Below the pieces are notes generated by a model. The model made no database searches. It worked only from the letters and a program-made list of their open reading frames with translations, and had not been told where the DNA came from. A program made the position numbers and the translations under genes. Shown here one piece after another: positions 3,718 through 33,149 of a stretch of 34,032 nt of DNA (the stretch's first letter is position 1; every line of letters begins with the position of its first letter). The stretch is from a virus, in the IMG/VR virus record IMGVR_UViG_3300027742_000026; one strand, given 5' to 3'.

Positions 3718-4032
3718 ATGGGACTGATACTAACAGAATCACAAGCAGATAGTCAGGGCAAAACAGGAAAGGAATCAGTGATTGAAAGTTTTTCAAAAGA
3801 GATGTTGTTGGTTGCATATGATGAGGAGGATGTGGTTGCAGACTACAAGAGACTCAAAGACAAATTGGCAGACCCAACCATATCAAACAGAGATTTTGCA
3901 TTATTGTTGAGATTGGCATGGGATTTCAGATTGCCAAGACCAAAACAGGGGTTGGATGTCACAAGTGAGGGAAAGTCTATATCAGGATATTCATTTGAGA
4001 TAGTCAAACCAAAAGATGATAAAGACAGTTAA
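3718..4032 (+). CDS. Putative small terminase subunit (by position)
   Basis: 104-aa ORF that overlaps the start of the large terminase. It follows a long non-coding region containing direct repeats. No diagnostic motif was recognised. Confidence 0.4.
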   Translation: MGLILTESQADSQGKTGKESVIESFSKEMLLVAYDEEDVVADYKRLKDKLADPTISNRDFALLLRLAWDFRLPRPKQGLDVTSEGKSISGYSFEIVKPKDDKDS

Positions 4033-5230
4033 AGTCACAGGAGTTTATGAAAAGACAGTTGAGGCATCCAAGAAATACAAGATAATATTGCATGAGGGTG
4101 GGTCAAGGTCATCCAAGACATGGAGTATATTTCAGTTTTTTTTAGGAAAGGCAATTGCAGGAGAGTGTATCACTGTCACTATTGTGAGAGATAAACTCAC
4201 ATGGATTAAAAGTACCCTACTCAAAGATTTTCAGGAAATTGTCAAACTGATGGAGTTGGATGTATTGCCAGATGTCAACATCAACAGACCAGAACAGACC
4301 TATTACATCAATGGGAGTGAGTTTGCATTCTATGGATTAGACTATGCAGAGAAATTACATGGGAGGACACAAGATTGGTTTTGGGGCAACGAGGCAATGG
4401 AGATTGCAAAGAAACATTTTGACCAGTTGGAAATGAGAACAAAGATTGGAGGGATATTGGACTACAATCCATATGATGATATGCATTGGGTGTTTGATTT
4501 ACAGAAAAGACCAGATGTGACAACTATCAAGTCAACCATGTTGGACAATCCATTTTTACCAGAGAGCATCAGGACAAAAATCAAATCCTATGAGCCAACA
4601 GAGAACAATATTGCACAGGGTACAGCAGATGAGTTTATGTGGCAGGTGTATGGACTAGGAAACAAGGCAAGATTACAGGGGACTATATTTAACAGTTGGG
4701 ATATTGTGGAGACCATACCAGAGGATGCCAAATTGCTTGGAATGGGATTGGACTTTGGATATACCAATGACCCAACAGCATTGGTTGAATTATACAAATA
4801 CAACAATGAGATATATTTCAATGAGTTGATATATGAAACAGGAATGTTAAACAGTGACATTGCCCAGAGAATGAAAGACTTGGATGTGAATGGATACACA
4901 GATATTTATGCAGACAGTAGTGAGCCAAAGAGTATTGAGGAGATTAGGAGACATGGTTTCAATATCAGGGGTGTGGACAAGGGTTCAGATTCAATCAACT
5001 ATGGAATTGATATAATGAAATCATACAAGATGCATATCACAAGAAAGAGTGATAATATGGAAATGGAGTTGAGGAGATACAAATGGGCAGAGGACAGGGT
5101 TGGAAAGATACTCAACAAGCCAGTGGATGCATTCAATCACTGTATTGATGCAGGGAGATATAGTGTGATGATGTTATTAGGAAAGCAACCAGAGATTCAG
5201 ATATTCAACAAAGAAAGATTTGGTTTGTAG
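4016..5230 (+). CDS. terL: Large terminase subunit (PBSX / Terminase_3-like)
   Basis: Walker A-like GGSRSSKT. Nuclease-domain motifs MGLDFGYTNDPTALVE, IYADSSEP and HCIDAGRY are in the order typical of this family. Confidence 0.92.
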   Translation: MIKTVKVTGVYEKTVEASKKYKIILHEGGSRSSKTWSIFQFFLGKAIAGECITVTIVRDKLTWIKSTLLKDFQEIVKLMELDVLPDVNINRPEQTYYINGSEFAFYGLDYAEKLHGRTQDWFWGNEAMEIAKKHFDQLEMRTKIGGILDYNPYDDMHWVFDLQKRPDVTTIKSTMLDNPFLPESIRTKIKSYEPTENNIAQGTADEFMWQVYGLGNKARLQGTIFNSWDIVETIPEDAKLLGMGLDFGYTNDPTALVELYKYNNEIYFNELIYETGMLNSDIAQRMKDLDVNGYTDIYADSSEPKSIEEIRRHGFNIRGVDKGSDSINYGIDIMKSYKMHITRKSDNMEMELRRYKWAEDRVGKILNKPVDAFNHCIDAGRYSVMMLLGKQPEIQIFNKERFGL

Positions 5231-5274: not shown

Positions 5275-6591
5275 ATGTTTACAGTACCAGAGGAAAAGTC
5301 ACTGTCAGTTGAATTGATTGAGGATGCCATCAAGTATAATGAAAAGGACAGGAGCAGGTTTGATACATTAGAAAACTATTACAGAGGAGAGCATCCAATA
5401 CTCAAAAGAAAGAAACCCCCAACAGCCAAGAACAGCAGGATTGTGGTTAATCATGCCAAGTTCATTACAGACACCAATGTGGGGTATTTGCTAGGGTCAA
5501 CACCATCATACACAGTTGCAGATGAGAAATATGACATTGCCCCAATCATGGATGAGTACAAAAGGCAGACTATATCAGACACAGACCATGAGATTGCCAA
5601 AGATGTATCCATATTTGGGAAACAGTATGAATTGATTTACAACATAGAGAATGAGGTCAAGTCAAAGGACATAGATGTCAGGAATTGTATTTGTGTATAT
5701 GATGACACAGTAGAACACAAAAAAATGTTTGGAATCATTTACAAACTAGGGAAACAAAAAGATGAGTTTGAGAACATTATTGTATATGATAATGAGTCCA
5801 AGTATGAGTGTGCAGTGGACAAAAAGATTGTGATTGATTCAGAGCCAGAAAAACATTTGTTTGAGAAAGTCCCTATCATTGAATATAGAAACAACAGTGA
5901 GATACAGGGTGATTTTGAACAGGTGGTATCTCTCATTGATGCATACAATCTGTTGCAATCAGACAGAATCAATGACAAAGAGCAGTTGGTTGAGGCAATT
6001 TTGGTTGGGTATGGGGTCAAGTTAGAGAAACCTCAAATGTCAGAATTACTCACAGACAGGACATTGTTTGGATTACCAATCAACTCAAAAGTTGACTATC
6101 TCATAAAGCAAATGGATGAGGGTCAGGTTGATATATTGAGAAAGACTTTGGAGAATGATATCCACAAGATATCCATGACACCAAACATGAGTGATGAGCA
6201 GTTTATTGGCAATGCCAGTGGGGTTGCTATCAAGTACAAATTGCTATTGTTTGAACAGAATGTGACCAACAAAGAGAGGTATTTTGAAAAGGGTTTGTTG
6301 GAGAGGTTTGAGTTATATAACAACTATTTGATAAACATCAAAAAGAGTGTTGAAATCCCATTGTATGAGGTGGATGTGGTGTTCAAGAGAAATCTGCCAC
6401 AAAATGATTTGGAGATATCCCAGATGATTTCAAATCTGTCACCATACATTGATGATGAGACATTGGTTGAGAGACTATCATTTATTGGGAATCCATCAGA
6501 GGTGGTGGAGAAAAACAAGGCAGAGGACAGAGAAAAACAAAAGTTTGTTGCCAGACAGTTTGGTGAGGCACAAATTAGTGAGACATTGTAA
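5275..6591 (+). CDS. Portal protein (SPP1 gp6-like)
   Basis: 438 aa, immediately after terL. The N-terminal YYRGEHPILKR motif, the size and the position before a MuF-type gene are all typical. Confidence 0.85.
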   Translation: MFTVPEEKSLSVELIEDAIKYNEKDRSRFDTLENYYRGEHPILKRKKPPTAKNSRIVVNHAKFITDTNVGYLLGSTPSYTVADEKYDIAPIMDEYKRQTISDTDHEIAKDVSIFGKQYELIYNIENEVKSKDIDVRNCICVYDDTVEHKKMFGIIYKLGKQKDEFENIIVYDNESKYECAVDKKIVIDSEPEKHLFEKVPIIEYRNNSEIQGDFEQVVSLIDAYNLLQSDRINDKEQLVEAILVGYGVKLEKPQMSELLTDRTLFGLPINSKVDYLIKQMDEGQVDILRKTLENDIHKISMTPNMSDEQFIGNASGVAIKYKLLLFEQNVTNKERYFEKGLLERFELYNNYLINIKKSVEIPLYEVDVVFKRNLPQNDLEISQMISNLSPYIDDETLVERLSFIGNPSEVVEKNKAEDREKQKFVARQFGEAQISETL

Positions 6592-6607: not shown

Positions 6608-9600
6608 ATGGACATCCAACAGAAAGCCAGATGGGTGGCAGGGTTGAGGGTGATGTCAAACTATTGGAGAGGGAGGAGTGTCAACAGGTTGACTGAGAAT
6701 GAGGCAATAGGGCAAGAGGCAATTGAGAGAACATTGCCCATATTCAAAAAGGCACTCAAAGACCTCAACACACAAATCAATGAGTTATATGTACAATATT
6801 CAAATGAGGTAGGTTTGGATGTATTGGAATTGACCAGAGTATTATCAGGGGTTGATAGGAACAAGTTTATCAGTCACATGCACAGTGTCCTCAAAGAGGT
6901 TGGATTGGATGTTGGGGATATATACAACAGGGAGTTTTTGGAGAAACTCACAAGGTTGGAGGCATTCAAACAACAGGTGTATTGGGAGGTTGAGAAATTG
7001 GCAAAGGAACAAGAGGAGATACAGACAGAGGCATACAAGGAAATGGTCAAAAGGAGTTATGAGGAGACAGGCAATGACATCAGGAGGTTGGCAGGAGATA
7101 CAACATCCCCATTTCAAACAATTACCACACAGACCCTCACAGAGTTGTTGAAAGAGAGATGGGCAGGGGGCAATTACTCACACAGGATATGGGGCAACAC
7201 ATCAAGGTTGGGAAAAAAACTCATGGATACATTGGGGACAGGGTTGTTGATAGGATACTCCCAACAGAGGATGGCAAATGAGGTTAGTGAAAGGTTTGAT
7301 GTGACAGAGTATGAAATGATGAGGTTAATCAGGACAGAGGCAAATTATTTCAACAATCAGGCAGAGTTGCAATCATACAAGGATGAGAACATCCCATATT
7401 ACAGGTTTGATGCAATTTTAGATGGGAGGACATCCCATTGGTGTGACCCAAGTCAGGGGGGGTTGGGGGGCATGATATTTGCAGTTGAGGATGCCATTGT
7501 TGGTGTCAATTACCCTCCATTGCATCCACATTGCAGGTCAACCACATACCCTATGTATAAAGATGAGATTGGCAGTGAAAAGATATGGAAATCAAATGAT
7601 GTATTGGCAGGGAATCATATTTTGGTGACAGCATCCCCTCCTCCAAAGCCAAGACCCACAAAGCCAAAGCCAAAGCCAATAGTCACAGATGGTATGGAAT
7701 CAATCACAGATTACAAATCATTCAAGGAATATTTTGCTAGTATCAACCCAAAGTTCAAACCAGTTAGAAAGAGGATTGAAATATACAAGAAAAATATTTT
7801 GAATGCAAAATCTCCCAAAAATGCATATAGCATTATATTAGACAGAGACCATATCACAAGTGTGTATGACAATGAAACAGCCCAGATGGTGTATGCATTT
7901 CAGGAATTGAAACTACTCCCACAGGTGTATGCAGTTAATAAAGAGCAGTTTGAGTTTTTGGAAAAGAACACCAAATCAGCACTATCAATCAGAGAGATAA
8001 TGAGGAAACTGTTGGCACAAAACAATGCAGTGGATATGAGAACAATGTGGGCAGACCAAACCTATTTGGGAGGCAAACAGCCATTACTCAAAGTCATCAA
8101 TTATGCAGAGTTATCCAAAAGCATTGCAAAAGACATTCTCACAGAGAAAGATTGGGGTCTGTTGGTCAGAACAACAGGAAAAGAAAAATGGGGAAATGAT
8201 ACATATTTGAGTATGCAATTCAATCCTGTCAAAATAGAAATAGAGAAATACAAGAAAGAGGGAAAAGGGAGTGAATATATATCCATGATGGCAGAGACAT
8301 ACACATATCTCAGTAGGATTTACAGGGGAAAGAGTGAAAAGAGAGTGGAGGCAGGATGGGAGGAGAGACTTGGTGTGGACTTTTTGACTCAACTGATGCA
8401 ATTCAAAGGGGCAAGAGAGAGATTATTCTTTGGAGAGGGTTTGCCAAAAGAATGGTGGCACTTTGGAAACAAAGTTGATGTGAATAACATCAATAGGATA
8501 CTCAGGAGTGGATTCAAAAAAGCACATAGTGATATGTACAATGAACAAAAGTTCAATGAGATAGTTGCAAGGTATGATAAAGCATTTGACCAAAGCAAGA
8601 CACAGGAAAACATGAAACTGTACAGAGGGGTTTCTTTCAACGAGAATTACACGATTGACAATTTCAAGGTTGGGAGTGTTCAGTCAACCACAGACTATTG
8701 GTTCACAACAGAAAGAGAATCATTAGCAAAGGGATACACAAGTAGTGAGGGTGATGTTGCTATGTTGGAAATATATTTACCAAAGGGTTCAAAAGCACTC
8801 ACAGTGGGACAATTCTATTATGAAAATGACCAAGTGCTATTGGCAAGAAATACCCAGTATGAGGTCAAAAGAATATACATGAGCAAAGAGGGATACCCAG
8901 TCATTCAGTTGCAGTTTCTATTGCCAGAACAGGAGAAATTGGAACAAAGATACTATGACATGTACAGGTTTGATTCAAAAAAGATTCAACCAGTAGAAAC
9001 CAAGACATGGGAGGAGTTGATGGGGGATATGACAAGGTCAATGTTGACTAAAGAGGAGATTGATTTAGTAGAAAGCACATACCAAGATTTTCACATCAAG
9101 AGGGATTTTGATGAGAAACCACATGCCATACATGACTATGTAATGAACAGTGACAAGATAGAAAGGTATCCACATGGAGAGATAATGATGACATATGCAA
9201 AGATTCTCAATAACAAAATGAGGTTTGAGAATGATGATTTGACAGAGAATGCATATCAAGAGAACATTGACAATATACTTGGGGAAATGTTTGGAATAGC
9301 AGAACCCAGAAATCAACTGTTTACAGAAACCCAAGTCCCAGAGAGGTGGTGGCATTTTGGACAAGACAGGGCAACCATCAACGAGGCAAATGCATATATC
9401 ATGGGTGGGTATGATGCAGTCAAAAGAAAGGCAAAAGAATATTGGTCAAGGGCAGACCCAATGCCAGAGAAAGATATCAAAAAAATGATAGAGGAGTATG
9501 ACAGGGCATTTGAGAAAGCACAGAACAAAGAGGATATGACATTTTTCAGAGGGGTTTCATTCAGTCACAATTTCAATATAGATAATTTCAAGGTGGGAGG

Positions 9601-24942: not shown

Positions 24943-26046
24943 ATGGCAGACAGCAAGTTGCAAGAGTTGACAAAAATCACAACTCCCCAAAATGATGATT
25001 TACTGTATGTTGTGAGAAATGAAAATGGAACATACACAGACAATCAGATTGCAAAAAGCAATCTCATACCAGATGTGGATGTACCCAGTGATATGTCAGA
25101 ATTGACAGACACCACAGGGGTGATACCCAGTGATGTGTCAGAATTAGCAGACAGTACAAATGTAATACCAAAGGATGTGTCAGAATTGACAGATAGTACA
25201 GATGTGATACCAGAGGATGTATCAGAATTGACAGATACAACGGATGTGATACCTAGTGATGTTTCAGAATTGACAGACAGTACAAATGTAATACCTAGTG
25301 ACATATCAAGCAATGTTTTACTATTAAACAACACAACAGAGTTTACACCAGATGCAGACTACGAACCATCAACCAAGAAATATGTTGATGACAATGCAGG
25401 TGGGACAGTAGTAGACAGGATATATGAGGCATATACATTTGAGGATATGGGGGACAATAATGTGTACTACAAAACTGTGAGTGGTTCAGGGAGTTTGGCA
25501 CTCACACACAAAAATGCAGGGGTTGAATTGCAAATCTCAACAACAAATGGTTCATATGTAGAATTGAAACCAACAAACAGGATGACAGGGAGAAACCTGT
25601 GGAATTGCAACCCAGTATGGGGAATTACATTAGCAACACAGGGGTATGGTTGGGCAACACATTGCACATTTGACCTCAATTTTGGTTCAAGTGACATCAC
25701 AGATACAGGGTCATACATGGGATTTAGAATGAATACAGATGACGGAAAAATATATGCACAGAATTGCAATGGAACAACAAGAACAGCAACAGATACAGGG
25801 ATTGTATTTGCATCAACAGGGAATGCATGGATAGGGCATGATTTGGATTGCAAGATGACATCAGGTGAAAAAATAGAGTTCTATATTGATGGTGTTTTGA
25901 AAGCAACACACACAACAAATCTGCCAACAACATCATCTGATACAAAATGGATAGCAAGACTCACAAGGGTTGGTGAAAGTGGGAATCAGTACAATATGTA
26001 TTTGCAAATGGCAAATATCAGTTATGATATGGTTATACCAACATAA
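24943..26046 (+). CDS. Repeat-containing putative fibre / receptor-binding-like protein
   Basis: 367 aa. The N-terminus (LQELTKITTPQNDDLLYVVR) resembles phage fibre anchor regions. It has five and a half 14-aa tandem repeats and a beta-rich C-terminal domain. Confidence 0.55.
   Translation: MADSKLQELTKITTPQNDDLLYVVRNENGTYTDNQIAKSNLIPDVDVPSDMSELTDTTGVIPSDVSELADSTNVIPKDVSELTDSTDVIPEDVSELTDTTDVIPSDVSELTDSTNVIPSDISSNVLLLNNTTEFTPDADYEPSTKKYVDDNAGGTVVDRIYEAYTFEDMGDNNVYYKTVSGSGSLALTHKNAGVELQISTTNGSYVELKPTNRMTGRNLWNCNPVWGITLATQGYGWATHCTFDLNFGSSDITDTGSYMGFRMNTDDGKIYAQNCNGTTRTATDTGIVFASTGNAWIGHDLDCKMTSGEKIEFYIDGVLKATHTTNLPTTSSDTKWIARLTRVGESGNQYNMYLQMANISYDMVIPT
25084..25311 (+). repeat. In-frame 42-nt tandem repeat, 5 full copies plus a partial copy (PSDVSELTDSTNVI)
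   Basis: Copies lie at 25084, 25126, 25168, 25210 and 25252, with a partial copy at 25294. They differ at a few positions. Confidence 0.9.
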
Positions 26047-26064: not shown

Positions 26065-27069
26065 ATGACAACATACTACTACTCATCATTGTTCAAGAAA
26101 AGTGATGTGAGAATAACACAGGGGTACAAGATAACTCACAAGGCATTGGATTTATCAAGAGGGGTTGTCAGACAGCCAATATATTCTCCCAACAAATTGG
26201 GTAGTGGTACTGTGTCAAGAGTGGATACATCCTATGTATCAGGTGGCAAAACATACACAAACACATTGGTGGTATGGGTCAAGTATGACAATGGTATGAC
26301 AATGAAAATGTATCATGGACAGGTCAATGACAAAGTGGTCACTAAAGGGAAAAGAGTTTCAGTTGGACAACAGATATACAGAACAGGCAACACAGGATAT
26401 TCATTTGGAGACCATCTGCATGTTGCATTAGTCAATGCATCAGGTGGGACAGTCAATCCCACAGGATGGTTGATAAATGACAATGTGCCAGTTGCTAGTT
26501 TCAAAGTGGGAGACAAAGTTGTATTCACAGGTATTCAAAATGTCAGAAAGGGTGCAGGAGACAAGTTCAAGATTTTAGAGCAGACAATTGTTGGAGATAG
26601 GGCAACCATCATTGATGGTAGCAGGACAAGTCAAAACGAACAGTTTGGATTAGGAGAGGATGACTCATACACATGGTGGGATGTAAAGTTTGCAGGGGGA
26701 GGTACAGGTTGGATGGCAGATGTGGGAAAGTTCAAAATTGATACAGATGTCCCAGAGAGTCCCCAGTCGCCCTCAGAGGAGAGTGAATATCAAAAACAGA
26801 TAGAAACACTCAAAGGGCAATTGAGTGAATGTGAGGGGGCACTAGAGAATGCACAGGCAGATGTTTTGGGGGTGAGTGAGTCATTGGAGTTGGTCAAAGT
26901 GGAGAGAAATGAGTTCAAGAAAAAATTGGATAATATGACAATTGAGAAAAACACGATTGAAAATCAGTATAATGAAACGAAAAAAGAGTTGGATGAGTTG
27001 AAAGAGGGCAGAGATGATTGGATAAACAGATTAGCAGATATGTTGCATAAACTATTTGGAACGAAATAG
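26065..27069 (+). CDS. Endolysin: M23 metallopeptidase + SH3-like domain + C-terminal coiled coil
   Basis: HKALD (HxxxD) and GDHLHVAL (HxH) are M23 motifs. The middle FKVGDKVVF...WWDVKF...GWMA region is SH3b-like. The last roughly 95 aa are heptad-like and rich in E/K/L. Confidence 0.85.
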   Translation: MTTYYYSSLFKKSDVRITQGYKITHKALDLSRGVVRQPIYSPNKLGSGTVSRVDTSYVSGGKTYTNTLVVWVKYDNGMTMKMYHGQVNDKVVTKGKRVSVGQQIYRTGNTGYSFGDHLHVALVNASGGTVNPTGWLINDNVPVASFKVGDKVVFTGIQNVRKGAGDKFKILEQTIVGDRATIIDGSRTSQNEQFGLGEDDSYTWWDVKFAGGGTGWMADVGKFKIDTDVPESPQSPSEESEYQKQIETLKGQLSECEGALENAQADVLGVSESLELVKVERNEFKKKLDNMTIEKNTIENQYNETKKELDELKEGRDDWINRLADMLHKLFGTK

Positions 27070-30982: not shown

Positions 30983-31477
30983 ATGATAAACAGAGACAGA
31001 ATCAGTTTTAGAGTAGGAGGTTCAGGTGTGACAAGTAAAGGTGCATGGGCAATGGCATTGGTGTATATAGATGCCAGAACATGCCAAGAGGAGTTGGATA
31101 CAAAGTTTGGAGTGGATGGATGGCAGTTCACATGGAGTGAGGTTTGTGGTCATGAGTTTGCAGTGCATGGAGAATTGCAATGCAAGATGGATGATAAATG
31201 GGTCACTAGAGAGGATGTAGGGTATCCACAAGAGTTGAAAATGTCCAAAGGGGTCAATGATAGTGAGGTTCTCAAAGATGCAGTGTCAGATGCCCTCAAA
31301 AGATGTGCAGTTCAGTTTGGTATTGGCAGATTTTTGTATGATGCCCCAAAACTATTTTCATTCAATGTCAAAACAGGTAGGAATGGAAAGGTCAAAGGAT
31401 TTGCAGTTGAGGGTGAGCAGGAAATATCAGACAAAATTGATACATGGTACAAATCAATTAGTAGGGAGGCAAAATAA
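30983..31477 (+). CDS. Rad52/Sak-type single-strand annealing protein
   Basis: ALVYIDARTCQEELDTKFGVDGWQFTW and KDAVSDALKRCAVQFGIGRFLY match the conserved Rad52_Rad22 core motifs. Confidence 0.85.
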   Translation: MINRDRISFRVGGSGVTSKGAWAMALVYIDARTCQEELDTKFGVDGWQFTWSEVCGHEFAVHGELQCKMDDKWVTREDVGYPQELKMSKGVNDSEVLKDAVSDALKRCAVQFGIGRFLYDAPKLFSFNVKTGRNGKVKGFAVEGEQEISDKIDTWYKSISREAK

Positions 31478-32094: not shown

Positions 32095-32253
32095 ATGAAA
32101 GATTTTATTTTGAGAATGTTGTTTACCATAATTGTGGCAGTTGCAATTGTGTCATTCATTATGTACACAAGAGAATTGCTTGGTGTGGTACTTGTTGGTA
32201 TTGGTATTGTTTTGCTTGTTTTAATTGTTAATTCCTTTTTTGGAAAGAAATGA
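32095..32253 (+). CDS. Small membrane protein with two transmembrane segments (52 aa)
   Basis: An internal ATG of track ORF 31975-32253 gives MKDFILRMLFTIIVAVAIVSFIMYTRELLGVVLVGIGIVLLVLIVNSFFGKK. Confidence 0.4.
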   Translation: MKDFILRMLFTIIVAVAIVSFIMYTRELLGVVLVGIGIVLLVLIVNSFFGKK

Positions 32254-32693
32254 ACCTCCCTATTGAGCCACATTACAAAGACATGATAACCTATGAGTAT
32301 GTTATATGTGAGATATGTGGGAAAAAGTTTGAAAGTATGACAGCACATATCATCAGGAAACATCACATATCAGTGTGGGAATACAAAGAATATTTTGGGT
32401 ACAATATTAAACAGCCATTGGAGTGTGGGAGATTGCAACAGGTTAGGCATGACCATATAATGGCAAATGGAACATACAAGAATCTGCAACCACATACCCA
32501 TAATTTTAGAAAAGGGCATTCAGGCAGAAAGGTTCACAGAGAGCAGTCAATTGAAAGATATATATTGACATGTGAGAAAAATAACAAAGACCCAGAGATT
32601 CAGAAAAAAAGGAGTGAAACCCTCAAAAAAATGGCAAAGGAACACAACCCAATTGTTAATATGCCAAAAAAATATTGGACAAAAAGAAAATGA
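32250..32693 (+). CDS. Ros/MucR-like zinc-finger DNA-binding protein
   Basis: CEICGKKFESMTAHIIRKHHISVWEYKEYFGY parallels the MucR C-x2-C ... H-x4-H finger and its following 'EYR.KWGL' helix. The C-terminal tail is basic. Confidence 0.6.
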   Translation: MNLPIEPHYKDMITYEYVICEICGKKFESMTAHIIRKHHISVWEYKEYFGYNIKQPLECGRLQQVRHDHIMANGTYKNLQPHTHNFRKGHSGRKVHREQSIERYILTCEKNNKDPEIQKKRSETLKKMAKEHNPIVNMPKKYWTKRK

Positions 32694-33119: not shown

Positions 33120-33149
33120 GTAATGTGTTAATTTGAAATTGTGCAAGAA

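Follow-up and report, generated by a model that had tools for sequence, protein, structure and literature searches.

The subject of this report is a single large gene on a 34,032-nucleotide stretch of viral DNA, the IMG/VR record IMGVR_UViG_3300027742_000026. The whole of this stretch is called the window below. The gene is one open reading frame (ORF) that encodes a protein of 1836 amino acids. Judged by its domain content, the product is a minor head protein of the MuF/SPP1-gp7 kind, apparently enlarged into an effector of polyvalent type. Its MuF domain is followed by a linker, a first module with the fold of an ADP-ribosyltransferase (ART), a spacer, a second ART-fold module, two unassigned repeats, and an HExxH domain that resembles those of lethal factor (LF) and MtfA. 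Each ART-fold module keeps the arginine of the Arg-Ser-Glu (R-S-E) signature of its lineage and has phenylalanine and glutamine at the other two positions, a combination written here as R-F-Q.

The initial annotation, made from the sequence alone, had described two tandem ART-like modules with a non-canonical third catalytic motif. The two segments are indeed paralogues, aligning in BLASTP with 30% identity over 188 residues (E 4e-31), and the shared motifs that were quoted are all present, in frame, in the one ORF. The segments were correctly located at 8413-8900 and 9313-9850, but the modules are slightly larger than these bounds (Table 1). The pair also lies inside a MuF protein, as had been stated. 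PF04233 matches the MuF core, TIGR01641 (SPP1_gp7) scores 79.7 bits against a cut-off of 39.65 and is the sole NCBIfam match in the protein, and the gene adjoins the portal gene. A wider homology to minor head proteins covers residues 16-557 (phrog_115, 9.7e-63).

Both modules belong to the Alt/VIP2/C3 (PF03496, R-S-E) lineage, in keeping with the C3/VIP2-like resemblance first noticed by eye. Searched alone, module 1 scores 42.1 bits and module 2 scores 26.2 bits against PF03496 (ADPrib_exo_Tox), for which the gathering score is 23.4; the whole protein scores 53.7 bits over two stretches. A canonical-only profile, built from 39 canonical ExE domains with the R-F-Q clade left out, gives 121.8 bits for module 1 and 99.8 bits for module 2. 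When 1.84 billion cluster representatives were searched exhaustively with HMMER, 75 proteins were found, and the remote ones among them are ART-domain proteins. Searches of the PDB sequences with one or two module sequences gave insignificant matches only, and a 44-sequence profile was needed. With that alignment, VIP2, Certhrax, CdtA, iota Ia, and C3 are matched at E values of 1e-31 to 1e-14.

The AlphaFold2 (AF2) model of module 1, made from the 44-sequence alignment, has a mean predicted local distance difference test score (pLDDT) of 87.6 and a predicted template modelling score (pTM) of 0.82, and in this model module 1 has the C3/VIP2/Certhrax-type ART fold, the marks of which are a split beta-sheet and a helical lobe at the N-terminus. 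Foldseek matches it to Certhrax (top), C3larvin, C3bot1, VIP2, and Plx2A, all with probability 1.0 and template modelling (TM) scores of 0.65-0.69. In the viral structure library BFVD, it comes closest to the “head morphogenesis protein” of Raoultella phage RP180, a MuF-ART, and further matches include many phage “minor capsid protein” and “VIP2” entries. The input alignment consists mostly of canonical ARTs. Because of this, the model shows the fold and is silent on the fine geometry of the cleft. Module 2 would share the fold, given its 30% identity to module 1 and its canonical-only profile score.

Table 1. Positions of the gene, its domains and motifs, and adjacent genes in the window (profile hidden Markov model, HMM).
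Feature	Position	Strand	Residues	Evidence or remark
Large terminase gene	4016-5230	+
SPP1-type portal gene	5275-6591	+
MuF-anchored multi-domain (polyvalent-type) minor head protein gene	6608-12118	+	1836 aa, single ORF	ORF list
MuF / SPP1 gp7 domain core	7220-7546	+	205-313	PF04233, 46.1 bits against 29.6; TIGR01641
Pro/Lys-rich linker, SPPPKPRPTKPKPKP	7634-7678	+	343-357	read from translation
ART-fold module 1	8375-8950	+	590-781 (PF03496 core 624-758)	PF03496, AF2, Foldseek, canonical-only HMM
LPKEWWHFG, module 1	8441-8467	+
YDKAFD, module 1	8573-8590	+
LYRGVSF, module 1	8618-8638	+
Beta-1 Arg of R-S-E, retained, module 1 (AGA)	8624-8626	+	R673	model strand E80-87
Column of first STS Ser, module 1 (TTC)	8702-8704	+	F699	model strand E109-112
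LEIYLPKGS, module 1	8765-8791	+
GQFYYENDQVLL, module 1	8807-8842	+
Catalytic Glu column (second E of ExE), module 1 (CAA)	8831-8833	+	Q742	N740 in first E/Q column
Inter-module spacer	8951-9259	+	782-884	sub-threshold WipA_Phos only, 18.2 bits against 27
ART-fold module 2	9260-9940	+	885-1111 (PF03496 core ~930-1082)	PF03496, canonical-only HMM, identity to module 1
VPERWWHFG, module 2	9335-9361	+
YDRAFE, module 2	9497-9514	+
FFRGVSF, module 2	9542-9562	+
Beta-1 Arg, retained, module 2 (AGA)	9548-9550	+	R981
STS Ser column, module 2 (TTT)	9626-9628	+	F1007
LEIVTPKGS, module 2	9704-9730	+
GQFYDGRHTNILDKDQVLF, module 2	9746-9802	+
Catalytic Glu column, module 2 (CAA)	9791-9793	+	Q1062	K1060 in first E/Q column
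Repeat unit A	10289-10600	+	1228-1331	pairs with unit B; weak phrog_2579 “ParB C-terminal” match only
Repeat unit B	10865-11188	+	1420-1527	pairs with unit A
Putative zincin metallopeptidase domain	11213-12115	+	~1536-1836	HEIGH 11573-11587; EMFADAF 11975-11995
Small acidic ORF	12067-12417	+	116 aa	52-nt overlap with the stop end of the MuF gene

Altered catalytic positions

The R-S-E signature consists of an arginine on strand beta-1, the first serine of the STS motif, and the catalytic glutamate, which is the second E of ExE. To describe how the modules differ, five modules of the R-F-Q clade (two in the window protein and three in two relatives) were compared with 93 canonical domains from the other 72 of the 75 proteins. 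The arginine column (YRG) holds R in 92 of the 93 canonical domains and in all five clade modules. The column of the first STS serine holds S in 87 of the 93 and F in all five. At the catalytic glutamate, E is found in 90 canonical domains (the three exceptions look like local misalignments) and Q in every clade module. The first E/Q of ExE is E in 82 of the 93, while the clade shows N, K, P, A, and H.

The register of these positions is the same in a MAFFT alignment of 44 sequences, an hmmalign alignment of 98 domains, and the canonical-only profile, against which the five clade modules reach 75-122 bits. No gaps occur between the flanking anchors, namely VG ... LA..Y and PKG ... VLL-x-R. The earlier reading of E-N-D-Q and D-K-D-Q where ExE is expected agrees with all three. 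The reading of WFTTE and MFASP as an intact S/T motif was off by one residue, since the column of the first STS serine is occupied by F699 and F1007.

It is very improbable that the modules are ordinary ExE enzymes which were mis-registered by eye, with a glutamate really at the catalytic position. Such a shift might be suspected since an acid lies three residues before the glutamine in four of the five modules (E739 and D1059 in the window) and an aspartate directly precedes it in three. Against this, the three alignments give one register, anchored by PKG and VLL-x-R. Q742 is the first residue of model strand E153-156 (beta-5), the site of the catalytic glutamate, and the neighbouring acids vary (D/D/D/S/N before the glutamine). 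Mis-registration was looked for in MAFFT, hmmalign, and the clade-free profile, and it was rejected.

Elsewhere the scaffold is well kept. Among the 24 best-conserved canonical columns, the clade has the consensus residue or a conservative equivalent in 21, including D657, R673-G674, G689, I722, P725-K726-G727, L744-L745, and R747. The scaffold elements retained are the beta-1 Arg-Gly, the EIxxPKG loop, and the LL-x-R after beta-5. The three changed columns are exactly STS Ser to Phe, the first E/Q to variable residues, and the catalytic Glu to Gln. Four modules encode the glutamine by CAA and one by CAG, and the phenylalanine codon is TTC or TTT; the residues are thus maintained across synonymous change. 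In addition, several residues that canonical relatives rarely or never show are invariant in the clade: R603, P613, W617-H618 (WWHF), N626, N629, Y656, F677, F686, and Q735. On these alignments, the replacement of Ser and Glu is a targeted one on an intact scaffold.

Relatives and comparable systems

The R-F-Q combination occurs in all five modules of three proteins, namely the window protein, P0002, and P0003. These are the only homologues found with it among ~15 billion proteins, and each forms a singleton 90% cluster. P0002 has 1813 residues, is 45% identical to the window protein over its full length, and carries both modules, with E-P-D-Q and D-A-S-Q. P0003 has 1032 residues and one module, with A-H-N-Q. 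The three homologues share 45-56% amino acid identity. Pattern-based scans of viral, genome, and metagenome contig collections with the five-module alignment confirmed no further R-F-Q module, and invariance is claimed here for five modules from three related uncultured phages. In P0003, the MuF domain and linker are followed by one R-F-Q module that directly adjoins the HExxH domain, and this is the minimal architecture of the family. The spacer (residues 782-884) and repeats A and B are present in P0002 and absent from P0003.

By comparison with its relatives, R-F-Q is a derived state of an ordinary MuF-ART, because close MuF relatives (P0022, P0046, and RP180 gp4) keep the glutamate. P0022 reads E-N-E. 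P0046, a protein of 1126 residues whose MuF domain is closely related to that of the window protein, has tyrosine in the STS-Ser column and T-N-E at the third motif, with the glutamate kept. It may represent an evolutionary intermediate between canonical R-S-E and R-F-Q. Outside the three R-F-Q proteins, relatives retain S and ExE, apart from the exceptions given in the counts above.

Some proteins from the HMMER search contain 2-6 copies of PF03496; P0005, for instance, combines a MuF domain with four ART domains. Likewise, the metagenomic proteins P0004, P0007, P0009, and P0011 have 3-6 tandem canonical PF03496 domains, and one of these proteins also has a GNAT acetyltransferase. The two multi-copy proteins that passed the alignment filter carry QxE/ExE. 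Large multi-ART arrays of the VIP2/C3 type seem to be common and largely undescribed.

The functional prototype of a head-packaged phage ART is T4 Alt. ARTs of the Alt/VIP2 type fused to MuF are predicted to be packaged in the head and injected (PMC9503650; PMC5512222). What marks polyvalent proteins out is that they unite MuF and ART domains with a zincin-like metallopeptidase (Iyer et al. 2017, PMC5512222), and up to 12 ART domains can be found in one such protein (PMC5512222). MuF-ART fusions, tandem ARTs, and polyvalent proteins with both ART and metallopeptidase domains are already known, and only the invariant R-F-Q is unusual. The window protein shares with polyvalent proteins a very large head-associated chain, with MuF, one or several ARTs, and a zincin-like HExxH domain (putative in the window protein), encoded among late or virion genes. 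Their typical ARTs, however, are of the H-Y-D type (Tox-ART-HYD2/N4), whereas those of the window protein are of Alt/VIP2 lineage with R-F-Q.

The closest examples of the same layout are the EFV toxin of E. faecalis and gp4 of Raoultella phage RP180. In this layout, an N-terminal MuF domain, encoded beside the portal gene, is followed by a C3/VIP2-type ART of PF03496. RP180 gp4 is the only tblastn match among 50,697 phage records; megablast of the MuF-ART gene against these records gave no match. Both proteins are much shorter (~490-600 residues) than the window protein with its two modules and further domains, and both are canonical where the window modules have F and Q. EFV has S415 and E461-x-E463, and RP180 gp4 has QSTT ... 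S-E-K-E-ILL. EFV is a toxic MuF-like ART, and its toxicity is lost in E463A (PMC3000352).

Another comparison is with the binary toxins VIP2, iota Ia, CdtA, and C2I, in which two ART folds likewise lie in tandem by duplication; the module profile matches both domains of VIP2. In these toxins degeneration is confined to the N-terminal copy, from which Arg, STS, and ExE are gone; the C-terminal copy is fully canonical. The N-terminal domain of VIP2, for instance, aligns Y-K-N to YRG and E-Y-K to ExE in the profile alignment. In the window protein, by contrast, both copies have the same substitutions.

An example for an ART fold beside a zinc peptidase is anthrax lethal factor. Its domain II, VIP2-like in fold but mutated at the active site, was recruited for substrate recognition (PMC3496994). 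The window protein's C-terminal domain is probably an LF/MtfA-like gluzincin, as judged from its motifs and profile matches. EMFADAF sits 130 residues after HEIGH, and HExxH and ExFADAF are invariant in the three homologues. PF07737 (ATLF, the anthrax lethal factor N/C domain) matches the C-termini of all three homologues, with a best E value of 2.7e-7; the window copy itself scores 18-22 bits, under the 27.4-bit cut-off, in a match limited to the last ~40 profile positions. Peptidase_M90 matches two of the three C-termini. A profile search of the PDB with the alignment of this domain found nothing, and its AF2 model, made from a three-sequence alignment, has a pLDDT of 38.9, so the fold is not confirmed.

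The window protein and lethal factor have in common an ART-like fold with a mutated site, joined to an ATLF-type HExxH...ExFAxAF zinc peptidase domain that is putative in the window protein, and Certhrax, the top Foldseek match of module 1, is an LF-related ART. Unlike the window protein, lethal factor is secreted, depends on protective antigen (PA), and has an ART-like domain without the NAD cleft; the similarity of the window's peptidase is weak and sub-threshold, and its model is not a confident one. The lethal factor/Certhrax architecture may have its phage antecedent in a head protein of this kind, with a modified ART fold beside a zinc peptidase of ATLF type.

Active ART folds without an essential glutamate at the catalytic position are also found in nature. 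VopU is a natural H-Y-Q ART that is active and needs its glutamine, Q141 (preprint 10.64898/2026.05.07.723553). Tne5 is an ART-fold NADase in which the canonical glutamate is dispensable (PMC13285283), and ParT and Tpt1 work without it (PMC7827354). In CpnT/TNT, an ART-fold NAD(P)ase, the double substitution H792N/Q822K abolishes toxicity. VopU and the TNT and Tne families belong to other clades (H-Y-[EDQ] and Tne) that have no detectable sequence relationship to the modules, and none of them has R...F...Q on a PF03496 scaffold.

Possible roles of the modules

The reading that we tentatively place first is that the modules are enzymes, which would bind NAD+ (nicotinamide adenine dinucleotide) or a closely similar ligand that contains ADP-ribose and, in the early phase of infection, act on host targets by non-canonical catalysis. 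On the model of SPP1 gp7, T4 Alt, and EFV, the protein would be packaged by means of its MuF domain, leave the capsid with the DNA, and act in the newly infected cell at few copies. The chemistry could be mono-ADP-ribosylation without the classical glutamate, or alternately NAD+ hydrolysis. The targets would differ between the two paralogues, and processing or release of the modules would fall to the C-terminal metallopeptidase.

Several observations point this way. R, F, and Q are invariant in all five modules, though the paralogues are only ~30% identical. The alignment indicates a re-tooled and selected ligand cleft, not a decayed one, because the Arg/PKG cleft is kept, Phe and Gln are invariant with synonymous codons, and the polar residues H618, Y656, and Q735 are new and invariant. 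Invariant replacements accompanied by new polar residues match what is seen in active ART families with non-canonical motifs, such as H-Y-Q, rather than in decayed domains. A role as a catalyst is also favoured because the protein would be delivered at few copies per cell. For the same reason, a stoichiometric sponge for NAD or ADP-ribose signals was set aside as unlikely.

Other facts weigh against enzymatic activity. The last glutamate of R-S-E enzymes is commonly regarded as indispensable to NAD+ cleavage (PMC7827354), and the loss of toxicity in EFV E463A agrees with this (PMC3000352). The serine that orients the glutamate is lost as well, and the bulky phenylalanine could fill the nicotinamide-ribose subsite. 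No invariant acid lies nearby, the residue at -3 being E or D in four of the five modules. In the core of the family, a module is paired with an HExxH domain of LF type, and lethal factor itself shows this pairing with an inactive ART-like domain. Finally, five modules from three phages are a small sample from which to judge invariance. A further proposal, which we regard as unlikely, is that the R-F-Q modules are a new catalytic class within the R-S-E lineage. Such a class would be head-packaged, with an invariant Gln, Phe for Ser, and new His, Tyr, and Gln residues, and would carry out a different reaction (with another acceptor, with another ADP-linked donor, or as controlled NAD+ cleavage) from classical Arg/Asn ADP-ribosylation.

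The enzyme reading is the most likely, but it stands only slightly ahead of the possibility that the modules are pseudo-enzymes. These would be dead ART folds used as binding or adaptor modules, recognising host substrates, or the polyprotein itself, for the C-terminal LF/MtfA-like zinc peptidase. Domain II of lethal factor would be the parallel and, more loosely, so would the N-terminal ART folds of VIP2, iota Ia, and CdtA. A nucleotide or an ADP-ribosylated ligand may be bound, but not turned over, in the Arg/PKG cleft that remains. Every module has lost two of the three signature positions and the first E/Q, and the Glu-to-Ala substitutions of EFV speak for the same conclusion. So do the architecture of P0003, with a single ART-like module directly beside HExxH, the PF07737 matches of all three C-termini, the mutated but VIP2-like LF domain II, and the place of Certhrax as the nearest structural neighbour. 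A guide for a catalytic protease would also avoid the objection of low copy number. On the other hand, known dead ART folds such as the VIP2 N-domain lost the arginine and the rest of the cleft, whereas here R-G and PKG are among the 21 of 24 columns kept. The replacing residues are invariant and accompanied by new invariant polar residues, as in the active H-Y-Q family, and for the window copy the peptidase assignment rests on motifs and a sub-threshold Pfam match. It is also conceivable, though quite improbable, that the modules are inert cargo, serving only as bulk or spacer of an internal head protein, for example in capsid filling or the mechanics of DNA ejection. MuF/gp7 is itself structural (PMC5512222), and the related phage with P0003 does without module 2, the spacer, and the repeats. 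Mere filler, however, would not be expected to keep 21 of 24 conserved columns, or an invariant R, F, and Q across paralogues of 30% identity.

The model for how phages pre-load enzymes to reprogramme the host at DNA entry is provided by ARTs packaged in the head, among them T4 Alt and the MuF-ART fusions. For the cholera-toxin-type (R-S-E) clade, the swap of Ser and Glu for Phe and Gln on a preserved scaffold, present in two paralogues, is a natural experiment on the need for the catalytic glutamate. Activity of the modules would widen the chemistry of this clade, as VopU widened that of the H-Y-E clade. If they are inactive, they provide a clean case of an ART pseudo-enzyme recruited beside an LF-like protease in a virion protein. 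The R-F-Q protein is of moderate interest to ART enzymologists and phage biologists; its practical reach is limited, the variant being found in only three related uncultured phages among the ~15 billion proteins.

The phage and neighbouring genes

The window is a complete siphovirus-type phage genome of ~33.9 kb, either circularly assembled or terminally redundant, because its first 99 bases are identical to its last (bases 33934-34032). The long ORFs all lie on the plus strand, and GC skew is positive across the whole window. The gene order is terminase, SPP1 portal, the MuF-ART gene, a small ORF, a DUF4355 scaffold gene, and then capsid and tail genes. The identical 1836-residue protein is encoded on a 33,988-bp ENA metagenome contig (ERZ778604 NODE_1102), again between SPP1-type portal and DUF4355 scaffold genes. 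This placement between portal and scaffold is the same in three syntenic ~34-kb phages. The host is probably a member of the Bacillota, because the nearest portal relatives (~40% identity) belong to phages of Lactococcus, Brochothrix, Latilactobacillus, Enterococcus, and Streptococcus.

Repeat units A and B of the MuF-ART protein are 28% identical over 110 residues (pairwise E 2e-9) and form a second internal duplication. A PADLOC scan of the whole protein gave no match.

In MuF polymorphic toxins, a long MuF protein ends in a variable toxin region, and a small ORF (<150 residues) comes after it as candidate immunity gene (Jamet et al. 2017, PMC5576092); these toxins are restricted to temperate phages (PMC5576092). 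The position of the 116-residue acidic ORF fits this pattern, in which a small “immunity-like” ORF lies 3' of most MuF toxin genes. The ORF is kept in both related phages, with 51% and 31% identity, and has no family match. The C-terminal region of the MuF protein differs among the related phages, the proteins being 1836, 1813, and 1032 residues long. A Pfam scan of ten window ORFs revealed neither an ADP-ribose-removing nor an immunity partner (macro, ARH), and the ORFs that were scanned include no recognised integrase.

The structural module is highly divergent from those of catalogued phages. The 280-residue ORF in the major-capsid position (13048-13890) has no Pfam or PHROG match, and the same is true of a 367-residue ORF (24943-26046) that lies ahead of an M23-type endolysin gene (26065-27069). 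Further genes encode a Rad52/22-type recombinase (30983-31477), a ROS/MucR-type zinc-finger regulator (32250-32693), and a SprT-like metalloprotease (33141-33620). Upstream of the terminase, overlapping genes for a glycosyltransferase and an S-adenosylmethionine (SAM) methyltransferase (1081-2040 and 2037-2987) are conserved in the related phage locus L003, and they may be a moron pair for modification of DNA or of the surface.

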